NCBI RefSeq assembly: GCF_965641715.1
Contig: NZ_OZ282453.1
DNA length: 64,000 nt
From: Escherichia coli
Lineage (GTDB): Bacteria > Pseudomonadota > Gammaproteobacteria > Enterobacterales > Enterobacteriaceae
Reading direction: 5' to 3' (one strand)
Position 1 is the stretch's first letter. Every line of letters begins with the position of its first letter. Of the stretch, positions 42,302 through 53,311 are shown one piece after another. The notes under the pieces were generated by a model, which did no database searches, was not told the DNA's origin, and worked only from the letters and a program-made list of their open reading frames with translations. Position numbers and translations under genes: made by a program.

Positions 42302-44533
42302 TTAGTTCTCAACCATCAATCGGGAAAGTTTGGCAAAAATCGAACTCTTACTACTTTCGCCACTCCTGAGCATATCCAGGGTGAAGCTATTGAGGTAAGC
42401 ACCAGTTAACGGGTGGTTAAATACATCTACGGCCTTACCTTGGGCGTCCCATATCAGCAGATTTTCTACCAGGTTAGGCCGTGCAATAGTAGGATTTGTA
42501 GGCTGAGCATCGCTTACCAGAACAAACACTCCATTCACATGCGGTTGCAGGTAAATATGGTGATGCTTCATCTTTTGAGTTTTGGTCAACGAGTCGTATT
42601 TCGAGCGGCCCGGTGATATCAGATAGGGCAGTACGTTTTGCTCCAATTTTGCTGAGCGGGTGATGGTATAGCCGTTAAATTTATCACCTTTACGCTCCGC
42701 CAGCGCTTTTTCTTGTTCCTGATAAGCATATGAATCGACGATATTAAATTGCGCTGGGCCAATCAGGCGCGGCACGCGGGAGCTGTTATAGGTGGTAAGC
42801 AGCACATCTGCTGTGTGGTCGTAGAGATAGAAGCTTTTATCGAATAATTTCTTTAGTCGTCCCAGAGCTGGATGATCAACAGATAGATACTCGAATTCAC
42901 CTTCAGCGATCCCGGTATCAACCACCCTAAGTTGGCCGCGCTCTATTTTTAGTTCAACATATCCAAGCAGGGAGAGATAGCTTTTTGTTTTGCGTACTGA
43001 ATAGGCGGTATAGTGCCCATCCGCCAATTCTGGCAGTGGTATGTTATGTTGATTGAGTAAGCTCTCTTTGAACCATAGTTCAGTTTTTGTTCGGCGTACC
43101 TTACTTTTCAATAAGGTAACTGCTGACTTGAGACGACTGTGTGGTTTCGTCAGTTCGATTTCGTATTGTGCAGGGTTGCTTACCAATTGTTCATTAATAA
43201 AATCAATCGCATCCAGCAACTTACGATCAATATTCATTCCTTGTAAAACCACAGGCACCGGTTGCTGATTTAGCCACCCTTGCAAACGATCTAGCTTAAG
43301 CTGGGTATAGGTATCCCAGTTGAGTTCAGGCTGTTTTCGGGCGTCGTCAAAGGCTGCATAGAAATCATTGTACTCAACAGATTCATTCTCTTGCTGCCGG
43401 ATGCTGTTGCTTCGTTCTTCCTCTACCGCATTGAGTACCAGAATAGATGTATTGGCAGGCAGCTCAGCAAATCCGGTTTGTCGGGAATGCTTAAGCGATG
43501 CAAGAGGCCAGAGTTGATACCCAGGGAACTGGTTGGCTAATGCATCAAAGAAATAAGCTTCTTGCGTGACGCTGAATTCGACGCCGTTATTAACCACCAA
43601 CAGCGTATTAGCCAGCTGTTGATCGAGGTCGGTAGCAAACTGATTGACCTCGTGTGTAGCCTGAAATGGGATAGGTTGATGGGGGATCTCTAGTTCACTG
43701 AGGCGCTCGCTGGCAGCATTCATGACCACGTTATAGGTATAGACCTGGCATTCGCCATAGCCGCTGCGCTCACGAAAAAAATCCAGTTTGCTATCACGGG
43801 CATCAAGTTTGCGCCGAGCTTTAAGCCGACGATTATCGATGTTAAACCACACGCTGGTATCATCCAGGGATAGGTGCATCTCATCCGCCGGTTCGACCAG
43901 GAATTTTCGTTTGTGCAAGGTAAAAGCGAGTTCATTATATTCTGAGGCATAAATGTCGAGCTCAAAGGCTTCCATCACCCCGATGCCTTTTTTTTGTGTG
44001 ACGGGCTGACTCAGACGAGCGTTAAGGTAAAGCGTTGAGTTGAAGTAAGTCGGCGATACCGAAAAGCGCTCACTGGCTTTTTCCAGCATTACCATTTTCA
44101 AATGCAGGCTAAATAATCCCTGAATCAGGCGAGATAGGTCATGATTTTCAGCGGTGAGTTGCTGACAAAGCGTTTCAATACGTTCTGCCAACGTCCTATG
44201 AGCCTGACTGTTCGGGTTAGTTGCAGGCGCCAGGAAAAAAAAGACGTGATGGTAATTTGGTAAGCAATGCAGTTCATATTTTACCTCCTGCCCGGCCTCC
44301 AGCCCAAGCTTCTGCCGCACGCAAGATTTTACCTCCTGATGAATTCGCGCATAGTAATCAGCGGATTTTTCTTTTCGCTCTTTAGTAAAGCGCTGAACCA
44401 TAAAGTCTATCGTATAGATATTAGATACAGGGGCCAATAGACGCTGGATGGTCGTCAGCTGATCTTCTTCAAGCTTGATCAAATTGGTTCGGGCAATCGG
44501 AGCATCCGTCAGTTCATTCAAATTAGGGATCAT
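42302..44533 (-). CDS. 743-aa protein of unknown function, second gene of the helicase operon
   Basis: ATG overlaps the upstream helicase stop (ATGA); RBS AAGGAAAAG; no motif I can assign. Confidence 0.8.
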   Translation of the reverse strand: MIPNLNELTDAPIARTNLIKLEEDQLTTIQRLLAPVSNIYTIDFMVQRFTKERKEKSADYYARIHQEVKSCVRQKLGLEAGQEVKYELHCLPNYHHVFFFLAPATNPNSQAHRTLAERIETLCQQLTAENHDLSRLIQGLFSLHLKMVMLEKASERFSVSPTYFNSTLYLNARLSQPVTQKKGIGVMEAFELDIYASEYNELAFTLHKRKFLVEPADEMHLSLDDTSVWFNIDNRRLKARRKLDARDSKLDFFRERSGYGECQVYTYNVVMNAASERLSELEIPHQPIPFQATHEVNQFATDLDQQLANTLLVVNNGVEFSVTQEAYFFDALANQFPGYQLWPLASLKHSRQTGFAELPANTSILVLNAVEEERSNSIRQQENESVEYNDFYAAFDDARKQPELNWDTYTQLKLDRLQGWLNQQPVPVVLQGMNIDRKLLDAIDFINEQLVSNPAQYEIELTKPHSRLKSAVTLLKSKVRRTKTELWFKESLLNQHNIPLPELADGHYTAYSVRKTKSYLSLLGYVELKIERGQLRVVDTGIAEGEFEYLSVDHPALGRLKKLFDKSFYLYDHTADVLLTTYNSSRVPRLIGPAQFNIVDSYAYQEQEKALAERKGDKFNGYTITRSAKLEQNVLPYLISPGRSKYDSLTKTQKMKHHHIYLQPHVNGVFVLVSDAQPTNPTIARPNLVENLLIWDAQGKAVDVFNHPLTGAYLNSFTLDMLRSGESSKSSIFAKLSRLMVEN

Positions 44534-47500
44534 GAGACTTTTCCTTTAGTCGGCAACTTTTCTACACCCAGCAGGGTTAGTAACATTGGGTTAATGTTCA
44601 ATGTCATGCTCAGTTTCGAATTTTCCAGAGCTCGTCCGCTCTCTCGATTTTTGGGCTGATAGTACTGATAGTCGGTTTGCAACAGGTTAAGGTAGTGGAT
44701 CGTGTGATCCACGTTATCTTGCCACATCAGATTATTGGGGTTCTGGCTGTAGGCGACGTTCAGATAGACAAATCGAATGCGTTCGTAACGGCCTGACAGC
44801 ACAGCCTGAAGCTGTTTCTGTCCCTCTGTATCCGCCTTTTGGCTGGTGATATTACGGATCTGGCGAATCTTGTTGTTGCTTTTCTCAAGCGTTTCTTCTG
44901 CCCGCGTTAAATCATCCAACTGCGTCGCCCAGCGTTTAACGTCGATGCAGAGCAGGTCGTTACCCACTTCAATAAAGCGGTCAAAAAACTCATATACTAG
45001 CGGTTCAAGGCGTTCAAACACCTGTTGATCAGAAAGTGGGGTAACGCCATAGCTTTTTAGCACTTTATCGAAGAGATATTCACCGACATTGCCTTTGAGC
45101 AACGGAACTAGCCTGGGGTTGGGTACCCATTTTTTGAATGCCGTTTCCTGGATGTTGTCACATTCACGAATCAACTCGCCGACCAGGTTGCCGGGGGTAA
45201 AATCGACATCGTTTCTATACTGCGGAAAGAGGGTGAGCTCAGGCCGGTACTCTCTTGCGCCGCCAGCGAAATCCGACAGGGCGGAATAATCTCTGTGGAC
45301 AAGTCCATCCGGGCCGCGTTTGTGGCAAAGTAAAATAGTTTGATTGCCCTGATGGCGGTCGATAAACAGGGCGTGGTGGATTGATTGCATTTGCCGATTG
45401 GCGGCATACAAGGAATTAGCCTGAAGTTTTTCCAGCCAACGCATGGGATTGGTAAAGGAGTCAGAATCGCGGAATAAATTACACAATTCGAGATATTCAA
45501 GGTTGCCGGCGCGTACCTGATTTATCCAGTCGGTTTTCAGGACTCGCTTATGAACAGCATCGATGCGGCGACCATTTTCTACGATAGCCTGTTCAAACGC
45601 ATACCGCTGTTCTGCATCTCTAAATGACTGGTTCTGACTCAGCTTTTCGCACTCCTCCATTAGGCGGTGGTTAAGCAAGGACATGCTTTCTGATACTACC
45701 TCGTTACCGCTATCTTCACTGAGAGCGGCGAACTGGAATGCAACATTACGGAACACATCGCGGGGTAAAAAGATTTCTGTTTTCAATAGAGTGTCGCGAC
45801 GCTCGACTCGCCCTACGGCCTGCACGACGACTTTGAATAAGCTCATATCATGTTCGGCCATTAACAGGCGATAGTTTTCGCCGTGGGCGAAATTAACGTT
45901 GAAATCGGCCAGCTTGTGGACGGTAATATCGTCATCAGCGTAGTGTTTAAGCACGGTAACGTAGTTAGGTAATGTATTAAGATTGCCGCTGTTGTCCTTT
46001 ACTTCGCTGTAAAACGAGGAGTTGATGAGCACTAAGCGCTCAAAATCGACATCCAGACGTGGTGCATTGATATCATTAATATCGCCGTCATGGTATTTCA
46101 CAAAGTAGTTGAGGCCAGTGCCTGCACTTTTGTAGCTGCTCATAAATACCAGTACGGTATTGCTGTTCTTGAGATAGGTTTCTTGCCTAATATCTTCGAC
46201 ATTAGCCAGTGGTGAATCGAAAAAGACCAAATGGACTGTGTGACGCCCTTTGAATGGGGTAAAGGTCAGGATCTGGTCATGTTTCTTATCGTTATCCGTT
46301 TTATCATCGCACCGGGAGTGCATACCGTACTGCTGACGCCAGGCTGATTGATGAGTGCGCCAGGCGCTGATAAAGGCCCGCTTAAATGTCCCTGAAAGGG
46401 ACAAAATCAGGCTGTTTTTACCCTCGTAGGCGGCAAGCAATAACGCTTCAAGCTCCCGCTGGTACTGACGCCGTTTATAGGTATTTTTCAGGTCGTACTC
46501 CAGCGGTTTCTTCAGCGCGTCGAAAAAGTTGTCATACGTCCTGCGATAGATCTCACAATTTTGGTAGATATCGGTCAATTTTAACTGCTTATCATCGAAC
46601 ACCCTGAAGTCGACGTTGCGGATACTGGCTCTCAACGCGCGTAGTGCTCTAAGCGTATCGATATCTGTTTTTTTACGTTCAATGACTCGATAGCCAAGGT
46701 CACGGCTATAGCGCTCCAGGAAGTGACGATTGAAGTTACCGTTTTTGGTGTGGCTAAAACCACTGGTGGCGCTAAATCCAATCACTTTATTGTGCGTGCC
46801 CGTTAATAAACGTAGCAGCATGGCTTCAGGCAACTCTTGTACCAGATCCATCTCAAACGCCAGAATAATTGTACGCTCGGCTCCACTGTTCACGTAATTG
46901 AGTTCAACTATCGGCGTCATCGTGAATACGGTTTTGGGTTGCAGATAAGTGTAGAAATGATCAATCAACAAGTTTTTATCGGTGGTGCGATCGAAGATAT
47001 GTCGCACCACTCCAGCTACATTATTGGCTGCGTCAACAAATTGGCCCAAAGGTGTATTCTGGCTGCTGGAGTTATCCTGGCCACCATTTTTTACCCAGCG
47101 CTTAAAGTGTCGGTTGGTGATATCAGAACAGGCGGCGAGGATGACGGAGACCAATTGGAACAGATCGTGCAGTGTGGGATTGGTGTCGCTGGCATCATTT
47201 TCGACTTCGTAATATAGCTCGGTGCGCGTTATGTCGCCTTCGCTGTTGCGCATACGAATGCGTTTCAGCCCCTCTTCATTAACGTACATTTTGGGGTTAA
47301 AACTGAACACATTCCGGGTAATGGAAATGATGCGTTCGGCGGCGTCGCCGTTAACTTCGAATGCTCCTAACTGGTCGCGAAACATCTCCAGGATCGAGCC
47401 CAGCGTCGTACCGGGTGATAATTCGCACTTTTTCGCCAGTAGGTCTCGAAGGATGGTGATGAATTTGACCATCTCTTGCTCAAAGGTCGTTTGCGCTTCT

Positions 47501-49239
47501 TTGGGCTTTTTCCGGCGCTCCAGGCTGAGTACCGCATTGTGAATACGTCCCGCGACAGAGATAACATGCGCCAGATTATTTTCCTGTGTGATTAGCTTTA
47601 CATGGCATGTTTCTTCAAGACGGGTGTAGGCTTCATGTAGTTCATCAATGATTACCGTAAAGCGAATATTTTTCTGGCGAAAAGGGCAGTCTGGATTACG
47701 TCTGAAGTGTTCATCACGAAGATAAGCAACCTGCCCGGAATGGCCAGCTGCCGCAACGGTGCTGATCTGTGGATCTTTGGGAGCCAGCTTGCCACCAATC
47801 AGCAAGTCGAAACCTACGGACTCAAAATGCACGCCTTCACCTCGCTGACGAGGCGCCAGTCGGTAAGTTGATGTGTCGAACTTATTTGTAGTCATTAATA
47901 GCACCGACGGGCGGTACTGGCAAACTTCGAAAGGCAATACCTGTTTGATAAGCTCGAAGTAGACTTCGTGTACGCTTAGTTCAGACTTGCTTGGTTTTCG
48001 TGCTGTCTCCGCGTGTTGCATTCGCTCTTGGCGCGCCTGGAGCCCGCGACGAATGTACTCTTTAATGGAAGCTTTTTCACTATCTGGTCCAAATAGTAAT
48101 TTACAGGCTGACTCAATCGTATTGCGGATACTATGACGACAGTTTTTTAGCTGCTCTTCAAGAATTTCTCTTTCGTAGTTGTTATCCTGAGAACCGTATG
48201 TTGTCAGCTTTTTTAACTGCTCTTCACAGCGATCAATTTGTGAGACATGGTAATTGAGCGAACGCATTGCGCTGCCAATATATTTGCTACCTTTCGCCCC
48301 TTCGTACCACTGAATATAGCGGTCGCGATTTTTCAGGCCCGTGGCCCAGTCCATAAAGTCGAGATCGGCAATATCCTTACGAGAGAGAACGCAAATGAAT
48401 TCGCCGCCAGAAGCCAGAATTTTATCTTTCTGGCTGCTATCCAGGTCGATTTGTGATTTTTGCGGCGACATGAACAGCAGGTTGGTAAAGCCACCTTCGG
48501 GAAACAGATCATCTGACTTTTGTTTTTTGGCGAAACACTCCAGATATTCGACATACCCTTGAATTACGCCATAACTTTTGCCAAACCCCGTGCCATCGGA
48601 ACTGAAGATGACCTCCGCGCCATCACGTTCATGCACGTGGTAAAGTTGAGAAACTTGGGCGCGGCAAGCGTTAATATCTTCAACCAGCGTTATGTCAGGA
48701 ATTTGCCTGGAGATGAGATCTTGCAGATTATTATTGATAGTTATCTCTCCCACACGCTCACACTCACGGTAACTATTGATGGTTATTTGGCTGCTTTCGA
48801 GCAGAATCTTTTCCACTTGCATGGGAGCAAGATGCAAGGCTGTTGCAATTTCATTGATAGTATCTGATAGAGGTTCGTGTGGATTGCTAATCGTGAAGTG
48901 GTTTAGTACTGCTGCAACGGTATCTGGATGCAATGCTTTTCTGAGAGTGGGGAAGGTGAGGCTGTAATCGTATAGCGCCAAATCATTGTTTATCAGACAG
49001 CGAAACAGCTGTTTAGTGGGATCGCCTCCAGGACGGCTGGCAAATCCCAGGATTTTTGCCTGTTCGAGTCGATACAACAATGCTGCAGCATCGCGATCAG
49101 GTGAGTCAAATGCATCGTGAAGCTGCTGGCTAAATGGCATTGTGGCATTCAGCCGGTTATGGCTGACCAACGCGGAAAAGTGCTGACGTACCAAGGTAAG
49201 CAGCTTACAATCTTCCTTTATAGTCCAGTTTTTTCTCAT
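44530..49239 (-). CDS. large divergent SF2 (DExH) helicase/translocase-like protein, possible C-terminal Mrr-like nuclease fold
   Basis: ORF 44530-49275, probable start at second Met (49239) behind AGGGGA; motif I SDGTGFGKS (nt about 48574-48600), motif II VIIDELHE (about 47635-47655), Snf2-like motif V SSYKSAGTGLNY, motif VI QAVGRVERR (about 45796-45822); C-terminal GEYLFDKVL...DLLCIDVKRW. Confidence 0.8.
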   Translation of the reverse strand: MRKNWTIKEDCKLLTLVRQHFSALVSHNRLNATMPFSQQLHDAFDSPDRDAAALLYRLEQAKILGFASRPGGDPTKQLFRCLINNDLALYDYSLTFPTLRKALHPDTVAAVLNHFTISNPHEPLSDTINEIATALHLAPMQVEKILLESSQITINSYRECERVGEITINNNLQDLISRQIPDITLVEDINACRAQVSQLYHVHERDGAEVIFSSDGTGFGKSYGVIQGYVEYLECFAKKQKSDDLFPEGGFTNLLFMSPQKSQIDLDSSQKDKILASGGEFICVLSRKDIADLDFMDWATGLKNRDRYIQWYEGAKGSKYIGSAMRSLNYHVSQIDRCEEQLKKLTTYGSQDNNYEREILEEQLKNCRHSIRNTIESACKLLFGPDSEKASIKEYIRRGLQARQERMQHAETARKPSKSELSVHEVYFELIKQVLPFEVCQYRPSVLLMTTNKFDTSTYRLAPRQRGEGVHFESVGFDLLIGGKLAPKDPQISTVAAAGHSGQVAYLRDEHFRRNPDCPFRQKNIRFTVIIDELHEAYTRLEETCHVKLITQENNLAHVISVAGRIHNAVLSLERRKKPKEAQTTFEQEMVKFITILRDLLAKKCELSPGTTLGSILEMFRDQLGAFEVNGDAAERIISITRNVFSFNPKMYVNEEGLKRIRMRNSEGDITRTELYYEVENDASDTNPTLHDLFQLVSVILAACSDITNRHFKRWVKNGGQDNSSSQNTPLGQFVDAANNVAGVVRHIFDRTTDKNLLIDHFYTYLQPKTVFTMTPIVELNYVNSGAERTIILAFEMDLVQELPEAMLLRLLTGTHNKVIGFSATSGFSHTKNGNFNRHFLERYSRDLGYRVIERKKTDIDTLRALRALRASIRNVDFRVFDDKQLKLTDIYQNCEIYRRTYDNFFDALKKPLEYDLKNTYKRRQYQRELEALLLAAYEGKNSLILSLSGTFKRAFISAWRTHQSAWRQQYGMHSRCDDKTDNDKKHDQILTFTPFKGRHTVHLVFFDSPLANVEDIRQETYLKNSNTVLVFMSSYKSAGTGLNYFVKYHDGDINDINAPRLDVDFERLVLINSSFYSEVKDNSGNLNTLPNYVTVLKHYADDDITVHKLADFNVNFAHGENYRLLMAEHDMSLFKVVVQAVGRVERRDTLLKTEIFLPRDVFRNVAFQFAALSEDSGNEVVSESMSLLNHRLMEECEKLSQNQSFRDAEQRYAFEQAIVENGRRIDAVHKRVLKTDWINQVRAGNLEYLELCNLFRDSDSFTNPMRWLEKLQANSLYAANRQMQSIHHALFIDRHQGNQTILLCHKRGPDGLVHRDYSALSDFAGGAREYRPELTLFPQYRNDVDFTPGNLVGELIRECDNIQETAFKKWVPNPRLVPLLKGNVGEYLFDKVLKSYGVTPLSDQQVFERLEPLVYEFFDRFIEVGNDLLCIDVKRWATQLDDLTRAEETLEKSNNKIRQIRNITSQKADTEGQKQLQAVLSGRYERIRFVYLNVAYSQNPNNLMWQDNVDHTIHYLNLLQTDYQYYQPKNRESGRALENSKLSMTLNINPMLLTLLGVEKLPTKGKVS

Positions 49240-50364
49240 TCTTCTTCCCCTTAATATAAATGCACCTGCAACCACTCAGCCAAACGCTCAACGTCAAAAC
49301 CCGTAATCCATACTCCCACGCCAAAAACGTCTTCGATAAATATTCATCATATTTTCGAGGCACTTTTCAGAGATGCTCTTGGCAAGACGGGACTCAGGGG
49401 GTAAACCTTCCTGTAGTAAATTGCTTAGCGTCTGCTTAACTTTCCCGAGCGTATTTTTTCAACTACGGCAGCAAATGAGACGGTCTTAAAACCGTGCAGG
49501 ATAGGCCATATCTACAACGTGTTTACTACTTGAGCACACATTGTGATATGGCAGTCACCTTTCCGACAAATGGTGAACCGTCCCTGACGAACAACAACAT
49601 TAACGCATATCTCTTCATCGCCTGATCAAAGTAGCTGCCAACTATTATTCGCCTCAACAATGAGTTTTTTTACTAACGATTTCTACTACCTTCCCAAAGC
49701 GACCACAACAATCAAAAATATTGTTTACACATCAGTCTCATATCACCGGAGTAAGTTGACTATTGATAAACCATTTCAAGATATTAATAGCTGATCATAC
49801 TTCCCCAAAGTGCTTATTTATAGCGAAGGCAAATAGCATAAACTGAAGGGCGAATTGTTAAATCATACCGTGAATGAGCTGAAGAACAAGCATAAAAATT
49901 ATATCATTTACATGACTTATGTGTTTTAGTTAAATGATAAATAGGCAGTATAAAATCCAATTCAACAGCCGAGTTCAAGCGATTAATTTTTTGATGAGCT
50001 TATCAAGCACGAGCAGCGATACCAGCAAATCCACTTGGTTGCTTGAAGAATATGACTCCTTCAACACATAGCAGATTATCTCCGCCGTTGGTAGAGAACC
50101 GTTCACCGTTGTTAGTCAACAGTTATAAATTTATATTAATGATTAGAAGAATCTATCTCGGGGTAGATCATCAACATTACTTATTCTAAACCACGTTACA
50201 CATGATCTCCGGGGCAGCGAAGTCATCAAAAAAGAGTATTATAAAACTCCGCCCTTAAGGAGAAAGGTTTCCTGGCGGTTGTAATGCCGTTGACGATACA
50301 GCGCACAACACGGATATAAACAACCATTTGATTGATTAATATCTGAAGGGCTGTTTATATTTAA

Positions 50365-50553
50365 TCAAGCTAACGATTCATTAATCTTTACATAGAGATG
50401 AGGTAATGTGGCCTCATTGCGATTCACATCCAGATAATCCGCCCCCCACTGCAGCATCTGCCGCTCTACCGCATCTCTCGGCCATAGCCCCGACTCAATC
50501 AACGACCTACACGCCATTGCCCTGAAACCATGCCCACAAAAAGCAGCTCTCAA
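50365..50553 (-). pseudogene. P4-type tyrosine integrase C-terminal remnant
   Basis: HGFRAMACRSLIESGLWPRDAVERQM ... WGADYLDVNR resembles the C-terminus of P4-like integrases with an internal deletion; no N-terminal part present. Confidence 0.65.
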
Positions 50554-50937
50554 TTTCCATTCATGCTTTATACCTTTTCTAATAGGCTTTTGCTTCAGGC
50601 TTAGCCGAACGAACCTTCACATCACTCAAAGCCATGATGAATACCCTTTCAAGGGTTTTGTGTGGGTACAAACATTATCCAATCGGGATATACCCGCAGC
50701 TGTAGCTGTACCCGCATCAGTAAGTTGATGTAGATTCGAAAAATAGCGGAAACCCTGTGTGACACTGATTTCAGGCACAAAAAAAGACGTCTGTTGACGT
50801 CTATTGATGGTGCGAAGGCCGCACCGCGATTCCAGACTCAACAATATGAAATCAATGGATTTTTAAAAATGCGAAGTTACTTTGTATACTCACATGTATA
50901 CTCAGTACCATTTCTTAAGAAATCAATTCATTCAATA

Positions 50938-51744
50938 CTACTCATCATCGTCTTCCACTGGTTCCAGCACATCAAGCGCAACTCGCACCATAGCGATAGA
51001 ACCAATACGAATGAAAGCATCTTCTCCATCTTCGTCGGTTATCATAAAACGATCCGTGGTTTCAGGCTCGCAATCCAGCGCGTCAAAAAAAGCATTCAAC
51101 TGGCCGATATCATCCGTCTCTTCGTTTTGCGGCGCATCTGGCTCAACACTCAGTGGAATCACTGGTCCGCCGTTTACCAGCGTGATATGGACATTAAAAT
51201 AATCGTCTTCGTAGGCATCATCCTCTTCGTCAACGATTGGCCGCAGACCATCAGAAAGGAACTGATGAAATACCACTTCACGCATATTTAACGCATAACG
51301 ATACTCGGAAGAATCAAAAACGAAGAAGCGTTCTATGTTTGGGGCGTTTTTTTCCTGAAAATAATAATAAAACCTCCGCTTATCCGCTGCTGAAATGGGC
51401 AACAGCAAATAGTCCCTCTGCCCCTGTAGCCAAAGTTTTACGGTCCAGAGACCGCTATCCATTTCAATGCCGCTTGTGGCTATAGCCTCAAGATCTTCAT
51501 CAGTTTTACGACGCTTTTTGCGGAAGTCGTTTATCAACCGATCGCTTTCCGGGAACACTACGTTTAGAGGCTTATCCAGAGCATTACATATCGCCTGTGC
51601 GAGACCCAGCTTTGCAGCAACCTTCCCGGTTTCGATACGCTGAATTTGTTGCTGGCTGGTGCCGACCATAAACGCCAGCTCGCGCTGGGTGATAGATAGC
51701 TGGGTACGGAGCTGTTTGATGTTGTTCTGTAACATGGCATCCAT
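50938..51744 (-). CDS. XRE-family HTH transcriptional regulator with acidic C-terminal domain
   Basis: 268-aa ORF; N-terminal HTH (LSITQRELAFMVGTSQQQIQRIETGK). Confidence 0.75.
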   Translation of the reverse strand: MDAMLQNNIKQLRTQLSITQRELAFMVGTSQQQIQRIETGKVAAKLGLAQAICNALDKPLNVVFPESDRLINDFRKKRRKTDEDLEAIATSGIEMDSGLWTVKLWLQGQRDYLLLPISAADKRRFYYYFQEKNAPNIERFFVFDSSEYRYALNMREVVFHQFLSDGLRPIVDEEDDAYEDDYFNVHITLVNGGPVIPLSVEPDAPQNEETDDIGQLNAFFDALDCEPETTDRFMITDEDGEDAFIRIGSIAMVRVALDVLEPVEDDDE

Positions 51745-51849
51745 CCTTCAGAAGGAATAGAAAGTGCCATTAAAACACAAAATTGAGTATAAACACATAA
51801 TCGTGTTTACACTCACTAATCAACACCCTTGAACGAAAAGAAAATCTCT

Positions 51850-52125
51850 TCATCGTTCTTCTCTGGTATGCCAGAGATCAACTATATAAATGTCATTGTC
51901 ACGAAGTTCGTAGTGAACCTCATAGTCATCAAATAACACTTTTCGGACTTCCCGAGGTTCATACCGAGTCTGCTGTACACCAATTGCCGGATGTGCTGTA
52001 AGACCAGCACAACCAGTAATCAGGCGATCCAAAACGTCATCGGCGTGCTGGCGGCTATACTGAAGGGCGAAACGATAGATACGCTCAAGGTCATCCTGAG
52101 CTTTAAGCGTCCAGTAAATTTCCAT
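51850..52125 (-). CDS. ParE/RelE-superfamily type II toxin
   Basis: 91-aa ORF immediately downstream of the RHH ORF (4-bp gap); ParE-like translation. Confidence 0.7.
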   Translation of the reverse strand: MEIYWTLKAQDDLERIYRFALQYSRQHADDVLDRLITGCAGLTAHPAIGVQQTRYEPREVRKVLFDDYEVHYELRDNDIYIVDLWHTREER

Positions 52126-52128
52126 TTA

Positions 52129-52401
52129 TCAGGATTTCTTTAAGCGATTAGCAAAATCCACCATGTCCGAGTGGCTCATCACACGACCGGCATCCACATC
52201 ATCAAGACCGGCCTGGATGCTCTGGTGACGCCGTTCTCTTTCGGCCAGCATACTGGTCAACGCTTCCTTAATAATCCAGCTCTTAGAACGGTCCAACTCA
52301 ATTGCCAGATTCTCAACAGCAGCGGCCAATTCAATAGGTATCTGTGCGCTGATGGTTTGTTTAGTAAGCGAACCCATAGGGATTACCTCGTTTAATAACA
52401 T
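52129..52401 (-). CDS. ribbon-helix-helix (ParD/CopG-like) antitoxin
   Basis: 90-aa ORF, upstream partner of the ParE-like toxin. Confidence 0.65.
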   Translation of the reverse strand: MLLNEVIPMGSLTKQTISAQIPIELAAAVENLAIELDRSKSWIIKEALTSMLAERERRHQSIQAGLDDVDAGRVMSHSDMVDFANRLKKS

Positions 52402-52453
52402 TTAATAACTCCTATTAATATTAGCATAGAGGTGCCTATAAAAACATCACATC

Positions 52454-53311
52454 TCATTTTGCAGGCAACATCCCGGGAAAGTGCTTCGCCACGATATCAT
52501 TCATCTTCTCCACCAGATCCAAACGTTTGAAAGTGATATGCCCACTGCCCTTCTGAAAGTAGCGAATAGTGAACAACTCATCTTCGAAAATCTGCTGATG
52601 CGGATTATCGCGCACAAAATCCATAAACCGGATGGAGACATCATGCCGGTTATCGGGAATGGCCTTCCCATCCAGCAGATAGAACATCCGTTCCAGATCG
52701 GCAAGCTGATCGCGCCGCCAGCCCCAGTTCAGGCTGTAGCCCCATCTGTCATGCTTCACCAGATTGTTAACGATAATCTTCTTACCGAAATAACAGGGAT
52801 TATTGGTTTTGTAGTCCCAGCTCAATCCCTTAAATACATTGATAATCCCACGTTCGAAAACATCCTGCTTATTGTGGTGAAGTTGTTCAAAGGTACTCAG
52901 GATGTTGGCTTCGCTAATCGCCGGGGGATCGCCCTCCTCCAGATTCTTTGCCCACTGACTGCGAGCTTCGGCATCCATCAGAGTCAACATACCGGACTTC
53001 AGCATGAGATCGCGCCAGATGCTGCGGTCGATATTGCGGGTGATCACCGGCATCGCTTTGTCGGTTGGCTGCATCAGCCAGCAGTCAAAGGCATATCCAT
53101 TCCGCATTGCCCAGGTTCCAGCCATATCACCGCCAATACTGGATGTCAGGCTGGAGATATCATCCAGTTTTTGGATTAACGTCGCTATCTGGTTCAGTGC
53201 ACTATCACGTCCTGTGACGATGCGCTCAATACTGGTCGAGCAAATTAGTTCGTTATGATCGGTTAAGACTTCAGCTTCTGTTTGCATAATCTTTTGTCCG
53301 TATAAAAGCAA
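52454..53311 (-). CDS. conserved island protein (possibly DUF4942 family)
   Basis: 285-aa ORF downstream of the CbtA-like toxin; family name is tentative recall. Confidence 0.5.
   Translation of the reverse strand: MLLYGQKIMQTEAEVLTDHNELICSTSIERIVTGRDSALNQIATLIQKLDDISSLTSSIGGDMAGTWAMRNGYAFDCWLMQPTDKAMPVITRNIDRSIWRDLMLKSGMLTLMDAEARSQWAKNLEEGDPPAISEANILSTFEQLHHNKQDVFERGIINVFKGLSWDYKTNNPCYFGKKIIVNNLVKHDRWGYSLNWGWRRDQLADLERMFYLLDGKAIPDNRHDVSIRFMDFVRDNPHQQIFEDELFTIRYFQKGSGHITFKRLDLVEKMNDIVAKHFPGMLPAK

Follow-up and report, generated by a model that had tools for sequence, protein, structure and literature searches.

Among the toxin-antitoxin (TA) systems that combine a ParE-fold toxin with a ribbon-helix-helix (RHH) antitoxin, the closest to the locus described here with a documented biological role is ParE_SO/CopA_SO (SO_1444/SO_1445) of prophage CP4So in Shewanella oneidensis, which keeps the excised element in the cell (PMC8706911). 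Another described system is ParDE^I, the YacA/YacB pair of IncI and IncF plasmids, for which plasmid stabilisation, SOS induction and filamentation have been reported (PMC6614396). The subject of this work is a pair of genes at positions 51850..52401 of a stretch of Escherichia coli DNA of 64,000 nucleotides (contig NZ_OZ282453.1, called the window below), which are predicted to encode a ParE-type toxin and an RHH antitoxin and which lie next to a CP4-like module. The pair is very probably a functional ParE-fold/RHH TA module, and a type II TA operon of the ParDE type is, in our judgement, likely to be the full explanation of the locus.

The interval 51850..52401 is fully occupied by two open reading frames (ORFs), both on the minus strand. 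These, the junction between them and the control region upstream are:

52125..51850, minus strand: toxin gene, 91 amino acids (aa), assigned as a ParE-type member of the RelE/ParE superfamily, acidic, isoelectric point (pI) 5.07.
52129..52377, minus strand: antitoxin gene, 82 aa, RHH; an alternative 90-aa start lies at 52401.
52126..52128, minus strand: antitoxin-toxin junction of 3 nucleotides (nt), TGA-TAA-ATG, read directly from the sequence.
52392..52426, minus strand: candidate promoter/operator, recognised by cross-species conservation, directly upstream of the Shine-Dalgarno (SD) sequence GAGG.

The two genes are read as one operon, antitoxin first, on the same strand and with a minimal gap. 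The antitoxin stop codon TGA (52131..52129) is followed by TAA (52128..52126) and then by the toxin ATG (52125..52123), and the two genes are probably translationally coupled across this 3-nt junction. An earlier note on this DNA had described a two-gene cassette, with the antitoxin upstream of a ParE-like toxin and a spacing of 4 bp, beside an XRE regulator and between an integrase remnant and a CP4-like module. The Pfam search that it named has now been run, and matches to both the ParE_toxin and the RHH_1 profiles were obtained above their curated cut-offs, as expected of such a cassette. The order of the genes is borne out by the ORFs, and the strand, which the note left unstated, is minus. 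The spacing needs correcting from 4 to 3 nt. An XRE-type helix-turn-helix (HTH) gene (50938..51735/51744; Pfam HTH_3) does adjoin the pair, and the integrase remnant (50365..50671) and the CP4-like module are both present around it.

The toxin matches Pfam ParE_toxin (PF05016) at 1.3e-15 and 58.2 bits (cut-off 23), with the match spanning residues 3-90 of the 91 in the protein and positions 1-88 of the 89 in the profile. Both PF05016 and the RefSeq name 'RelE/ParE family' include both activities, and the choice between ParE and RelE was examined separately. No NCBIfam model matched the toxin, RelE/StbE included. When PDB sequences were searched with a toxin family profile built from 22 members, the proteins recovered were of the ParE type only, namely Mesorhizobium ParE3, ParE_SO (chain 7ETR_C at 0.0032), E. 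coli ParE2, PaParE1, Mycobacterium tuberculosis (Mtb) ParE1 and PrpT. RelE/YoeB-type RNases were absent from the PDB results of both the phmmer and the toxin-profile searches. The AlphaFold2 (AF2) model of the toxin has a predicted local distance difference test score (pLDDT) of 93.8 and a predicted template modelling score (pTM) of 0.83, and consists of a two-helix hairpin followed by an antiparallel sheet; this N-terminal helical hairpin packed on an antiparallel beta-sheet is the fold of the superfamily. The seven best structural matches are all ParE-type, with E. coli ParE2 ranking top, and structure and profile comparison together place the toxin nearer to ParE toxins than to RelE, YoeB, YafQ or HigB.

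The catalytic residues of RelE give a further means of comparison, their absence being the criterion applied in PMC6614396. In a weak hhalign alignment of the toxin family with E. coli RelE (E 0.013), in which the catalytic positions of the RelE sequence agree by count, R61 lies opposite E69 and R81 opposite E89, both glutamates being invariant across the toxin family. RelE Y87 has no counterpart in the toxin, which ends at residue 91, and neither has the C-terminal helix of RelE. The corresponding alignment with YoeB covered just 13 residues, too few for a comparison of YoeB catalytic residues. The toxin has a net charge of -6, and at pI 5.07 so acidic a protein is a poor fit with an RNA-binding RNase. 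An invariant W85-H86-T87 motif lies close to its C-terminus. On the profile and structural matches, the replacement of the RelE residues and the acidic charge, the toxin is assigned from its sequence and predicted structure to the ParE type and not to the RelE type.

The antitoxin matches Pfam RHH_1 at 4.5e-7 and 30 bits (cut-off 20.5). Its N-terminal domain is a ribbon-helix-helix, and its PDB matches are RHH antitoxins and regulators. The best of these by sequence is 6XRW_B, the antitoxin of a chromosomal ParDE system of Pseudomonas aeruginosa (E 5.6e-4), followed by CopA_SO (6IYA_A/7ETR_A, 0.003-0.008) and then by ParD3 (5CEG_A). The 6XRW_B alignment covers residues 16-79 of the 90-aa form, and so both the RHH domain and the C-terminal part, with a GL.D..AGR...H motif in common; the same C-terminal region aligns with the antitoxin of an IncF plasmid pair that is discussed below. 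From these alignments the antitoxin is predicted to have, at its C-terminus, a toxin-binding extension with homology to the one in ParD antitoxins. In NCBIfam the antitoxin gave a RelB-like match alone, below threshold. It is near neutral (pI 6.07), and RefSeq records it as a CopG family RHH protein of 82 aa. Translation is likely to start at 52377, giving the 82-aa form, because the ATG at 52401 lies inside a repeat of the candidate operator and is not conserved, and because RefSeq uses the same form. The 90-aa start at 52401 was rejected, the codon at that position not being ATG in Dickeya or Serratia.

The region upstream of the antitoxin contains an extended -10 candidate, TGcTAATAT (52426..52418), and a repeat block, TTAATA-N4-TTATTAA-N3-TTATTAA (52418..52392), which places the repeats after the -10 candidate and ahead of the SD sequence at 52389..52386. 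The motif TTATTAANNNTTATTAA occurs once in the 64-kb window, compared with 0.06 occurrences expected by chance. E. coli, Salmonella, Yersinia, Limnobaculum, Dickeya and Serratia all share the block ATGCTA..TTAATA-N4-TTATTAA-N3-TTATTAA, of which Photorhabdus has a variant; the DNA farther upstream is unrelated in Dickeya, Serratia and Photorhabdus. As a scan with the sigma-70 consensus found no promoter upstream of the antitoxin on the minus strand, cross-species conservation is the sole basis for the extended -10 candidate. The repeats at 52392..52418 are presumed to be the site at which the RHH antitoxin regulates its own operon. The site of CopA_SO, GTANTAC-N3-GTANTAC (PMC8706911), likewise consists of two 7-bp repeats 3 nt apart, the repeat here being TTATTAA.

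Among 5,426 complete E. coli genomes, 91 contain an 801-bp region, each time as a single chromosomal copy and with 90-99% identity. WP_001683517.1 of E. coli A30 matches the toxin at 100% identity, and the A30 antitoxin differs by one residue; RefSeq annotates the identical toxin as 'RelE/ParE family toxin' and its neighbour as 'CopG family RHH protein'. Close toxin homologues (65-99%) are widespread in Enterobacterales, in Salmonella, Citrobacter, Klebsiella, Enterobacter, Yersinia, Serratia, Dickeya, Pectobacterium, Photorhabdus and Limnobaculum, and distant ones on 1,756 plasmids (E <= 1e-3), the best match on an E. coli plasmid being 44% identical. In all, 9 distinct loci from at least 7 genera were compared for gene order, junction and operator. 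The antitoxin precedes the toxin in all nine, with a gap of 2-6 nt; the junction is 3 nt in seven of them, 2 nt in Photorhabdus and 6 nt in the locus L019.

The ratio of nonsynonymous to synonymous substitution rates (dN/dS), where synonymous sites are unsaturated, is 0.06-0.16 for the antitoxin and 0.04-0.08 for the toxin, and the pairwise identities of the two proteins correlate strongly (Mantel r = 0.96, p = 1e-4). These values indicate that the pair is co-inherited and kept under selection, with the exception of an orphan antitoxin in Salmonella. The profile scores, the recurrent order and junction and the dN/dS values put the pair well outside what chance would produce. The pair also occurs without its island. 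It stands alone amid housekeeping genes in Serratia, where it lies beside lptG with no island left, and in Photorhabdus, Limnobaculum and L019, while in Yersinia it survives in an island decayed to a DUF4942 fragment.

The Salmonella orphan was seen in three Salmonella enterica loci (L005, L006 and L007), where an antitoxin at 6001..6249, 86.6% identical and with its promoter/operator block intact, has a DUF4942 fragment upstream and is followed by ccdAB and an integrase fragment. No trace of toxin or XRE gene was found at these three loci. More than 3,000 blocks of the collection list the orphan protein, and the orphan state seems to be fixed in many Salmonella, in which it may serve as anti-addiction immunity. 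In E. coli strain E8 (L022, 4001..4175) and nine similar genomes, 175 bp of a related toxin gene are left as a relic without annotation. The relic is 76.6% identical over about one third of the query and has a disrupted ISL3 transposase as its neighbour; the island that contains it is also CP4-like but a different one.

In the mechanism that we propose, a single promoter upstream of 52377 would drive the antitoxin gene and then the toxin gene 3 nt downstream. The antitoxin would dimerise through its N-terminal RHH domain and repress the operon by binding the promoter-overlapping TTATTAA repeats, and its C-terminal segment would wrap the helical hairpin of the toxin and neutralise it by direct binding. 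If the operon were lost or silenced, the antitoxin, which we infer to be labile, would decay and free the stable ParE-fold toxin. The freed toxin would most likely poison DNA gyrase, leading to DNA breaks, SOS induction and filamentation, and since the cassette occupies the distal end of an integrative island of the CP4-like kind, loss of the island would be penalised (addiction). Taken part by part, we lean slightly towards DNA gyrase as the target of the toxin, and on whether island stabilisation is the main role of the pair our judgement is evenly balanced. Stabilisation of the island is plausible by analogy with ParE_SO/CopA_SO and from the persistence of the pair in decayed islands; this persistence and the distal position of the cassette fit island addiction, although they do not prove it.

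Several points weigh against this account. The identity of the toxin to its nearest solved or characterised relatives is 17-26%, and the comparison of catalytic residues with RelE depends on the weak hhalign alignment given above. An acidic toxin with a near-neutral antitoxin reverses the usual charge pattern. Literature searches by RefSeq accession returned nothing on this subfamily, and searches by keyword (ParE, CbtA, DUF4942, island) returned surveys only. In Salmonella the toxin has been lost in thousands of genomes that retain the antitoxin, which shows that its loss can be survived. Gyrase inhibition, moreover, is not common to all ParE-fold toxins, ParE2 being an exception (PMC8706911).

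This last point leads to the alternative that survives best, in which the ParE-fold toxin acts not on gyrase but on another cellular target. The precedent is ParE2 of E. coli O157, for which gyrase inhibition is reportedly absent (PMC8706911) and which is also the top structural match of the toxin. We regard another target as unlikely, though a serious competitor, since most characterised ParE toxins inhibit gyrase (PMC8706911, PMC11925232, PMC6614396), and since the remaining top matches by structure, PaParE1 and Mtb ParE1, have been described as ParDE systems.

A different question is whether the pair could serve mainly in abortive infection against phages and not in island addiction. Cargo of the defence type is present in the island, including a TIR-domain protein and a WYL regulator, with a type I restriction-modification system in A30, and other TA families are known to act in defence. 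The contribution to abortive infection that the earlier note had suggested found no support: neither toxin nor antitoxin matched a PADLOC-DB 2.0 family (E <= 0.01), and no homologue was found among the 50,697 records of the phage collection. The pair occurs alone amid housekeeping genes as often as in defence contexts, and its close structural analogue ParE_SO/CopA_SO serves element maintenance. Abortive infection as the main role is accordingly improbable.

A shade less probable again is that the toxin is a RelE-like ribosome-dependent mRNA endonuclease. The inclusive family name and profile would allow it, but the replacement of R61 and R81 by glutamates, the loss of Y87 and of the C-terminal helix, the charge of the protein and the exclusively ParE-type nature of its seven best structural matches and of all its PDB profile matches argue against such an activity.

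The XRE gene raises the further question of whether the pair is part of a three-component system, comparable to PaaR-PaaA-ParE, in which the downstream XRE protein would be an integral regulator. Two features bear on this:

50938..51735, minus strand: XRE-family regulator, 265 aa, Pfam HTH_3 at 1.7e-13; an ORF extending to 51744 is also possible.
51784..51815, minus strand: palindrome with a 13-bp stem and a U-rich run, between the toxin stop and the XRE start.

E. coli, Salmonella and Yersinia share the collinear order RHH-ParE-XRE, Yersinia even though the rest of its island has decayed, and in Dickeya an XRE gene follows the pair with two genes inserted between. Against this, the pair occurs without XRE in five lineages (Serratia, Photorhabdus, Limnobaculum, L019 and Dickeya L002), and the antitoxin has a DNA-binding domain and a candidate operator of its own. 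The histories of the toxin and XRE genes also differ, a comparison of E. coli with Yersinia giving 95.6% identity for the toxin and 70% for the XRE protein. The 105-nt spacer between toxin and XRE contains the palindrome, which was recovered by both a terminator scan and an inverted-repeat search and has an RNA fold of -19.8 kcal/mol (z -2.68); its core AAACAC-N6-GTGTTT is the only part retained in Salmonella and Yersinia. This palindrome may be a weak intrinsic terminator of the TA operon, an XRE operator, or both. Because of the palindrome, the five lineages without XRE and the differing histories, the XRE gene is taken here to be transcribed separately and to be a common neighbour that the pair can do without, and we consider a three-component system very improbable.

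In the XRE protein itself, the roughly 180 residues of the C-terminal part are modelled with good confidence as two similar beta-beta-alpha-beta-beta-beta units with an acidic tail (AF2 pLDDT 85.7). This part gave no Pfam or PDB match, the HTH domain alone matching solved structures. Conserved motifs of the protein across Enterobacterales are TSQQQIQRIE and D.DGE.AF.R.G. A more elaborate proposal would have an acidic toxin with a non-gyrase target and the XRE C-terminal domain together form a sensor-controlled module, with toxin release on a signal such as phage infection or island excision and with the Salmonella orphan antitoxin as immunity against incoming islands; we rate it as low as the three-component system. 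That the pair is a decaying, non-functional relic is hardly credible: TA pairs of old chromosomal islands are often inactivated, and ten E. coli genomes hold the 175-bp toxin relic alone and Salmonella the antitoxin alone, but here neither ORF is disrupted, each matches its counterpart in 91 complete E. coli genomes fully or nearly so, the dN/dS values are well under 1, all invariant residues are there, and the promoter/operator block is intact.

The ParDE-type operon, the reading that we prefer, is set in a CP4-like island. On one side of the pair lies the CP4-like module, which begins with DUF4942 (52454..53311) and continues with CbtA, CbeA, RadC and DUF932 (Pfam assignments). On the other side, beyond the XRE gene, is a recombinase remnant:

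50365..50671, minus strand: tyrosine-integrase remnant, two short ORFs, apparently internally deleted.

Its N-terminal piece (MALSDVKVRSAKPEAKAY) has 18 codons and its C-terminal piece about 60, with some 25 nt between them; at the corresponding locus of E. coli A30, which is 99% identical, RefSeq annotates it as 'tyrosine-type recombinase/integrase, incomplete'. The apparent deletion suggests that two islands have been joined in tandem. In A30 the island lies beside nanC-nanM-fim with an intact integrase far to the right, and the TA pair and XRE gene are at the end opposite this integrase, abutting the remnant integrase of an older tandem island. ARAGORN found no tRNA gene in the whole 64-kb window.

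Two further parts of the window were recorded. To the left of the integrase remnant, two ORFs of 743 aa (42302..44533) and 1,581 aa (44530..49275), both on the minus strand and overlapping by 4 nt, lie in what appears to be an older tandem island with fragments of HNH and restriction genes. Neither gave a Pfam match, PADLOC, which was run on the 1,581-aa ORF only, gave none, and both are 'hypothetical protein' in A30; they are a candidate two-gene system of a new type. On the CP4-like side, a 325-aa TIR-domain protein (61217..62194, minus strand; TIR_2, 2.4e-13) adjoins an HTH/WYL protein (60218..60988, minus strand), and a type I restriction-modification system occupies the equivalent position in A30, so this position looks like a variable slot for defence cargo.

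The pair is thus a real but routine ParDE-type TA operon, which public annotation pipelines had already named correctly. It adds one more ParDE-type addiction module to the accessory genome of E. coli, which matters little in itself, although the leuX-region island may be harder to cure with the cassette in place. It also represents an uncharacterised enterobacterial subfamily of acidic, 91-aa ParE toxins with the invariant W85-H86-T87. The Salmonella orphan antitoxin, the XRE C-terminal domain and the two large unannotated ORFs are possibly more rewarding subjects than the pair.

Comparison with known systems places the pair among several of its kind, at different distances. With E. coli RelBE it has in common the superfamily fold and an RHH antitoxin encoded upstream. 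ParD3/ParE3 of Mesorhizobium opportunistum (5CEG, 6X0A) is distant in sequence and lies on an alphaproteobacterial chromosome and not in an island. The chromosomal ParDE of P. aeruginosa (6XRW), the source of the best antitoxin match, has a toxin of 19% identity and a different genomic context. In PaaR2-PaaA2-ParE2 of E. coli O157:H7 (5CZF, 5CW7) the toxin is 20% identical. That system encodes its regulator upstream in the operon, and PaaA2 is not known to be of the RHH type. The window differs on both points: its antitoxin is an RHH protein, and its XRE gene follows the pair, is dispensable and has a control region of its own.

Plasmid systems come closer in part. YacB is a ParE-family toxin of similar size (92 aa) that is 25% identical to the toxin of the window, whereas YacA has no detectable similarity to the antitoxin and the YacAB promoter differs; an identification of the window pair with ParDE^I/YacAB was rejected on these toxin and antitoxin comparisons. 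The nearest relative outside the subfamily is the RHH-ParE pair of IncF plasmids in E. coli and Shigella (WP_024166087.1/WP_000421251.1), in which the toxin is 44% and the antitoxin 36% identical. It has the same length class and gene order as the window pair; it adjoins the RepFII replicon, and its genes overlap by 1 nt, in contrast to the 3-nt gap here. We found no experimental description of this IncF pair, and it too is distinct from the published ParDE^I, whose promoter is missing there and maps to yacA/yacB. On the IncF plasmid p_STEC1585_2 (L008, 1943..3276) two RelE/ParE-family cassettes are adjacent beside RepFII, one toxin-first with an HTH antitoxin (a HigBA-like order) and the other this RHH-ParE pair.

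The nearest counterpart with a documented role remains ParE_SO/CopA_SO (7ETR, 6IYA), which likewise has a ParE-fold toxin, a CopG-type RHH antitoxin encoded upstream and a place in an element of the CP4/P4-integrase type. The two toxins are 26% identical across 68 aligned residues, and the histidine near the C-terminus that is essential in ParE_SO (H91) is invariant in the window toxin family (H86). The antitoxins differ in length, with 82 aa here and 93 residues modelled for CopA_SO. A stabilising role has been demonstrated for the S. oneidensis pair, and by comparison with it we infer such a role for the pair in the window.
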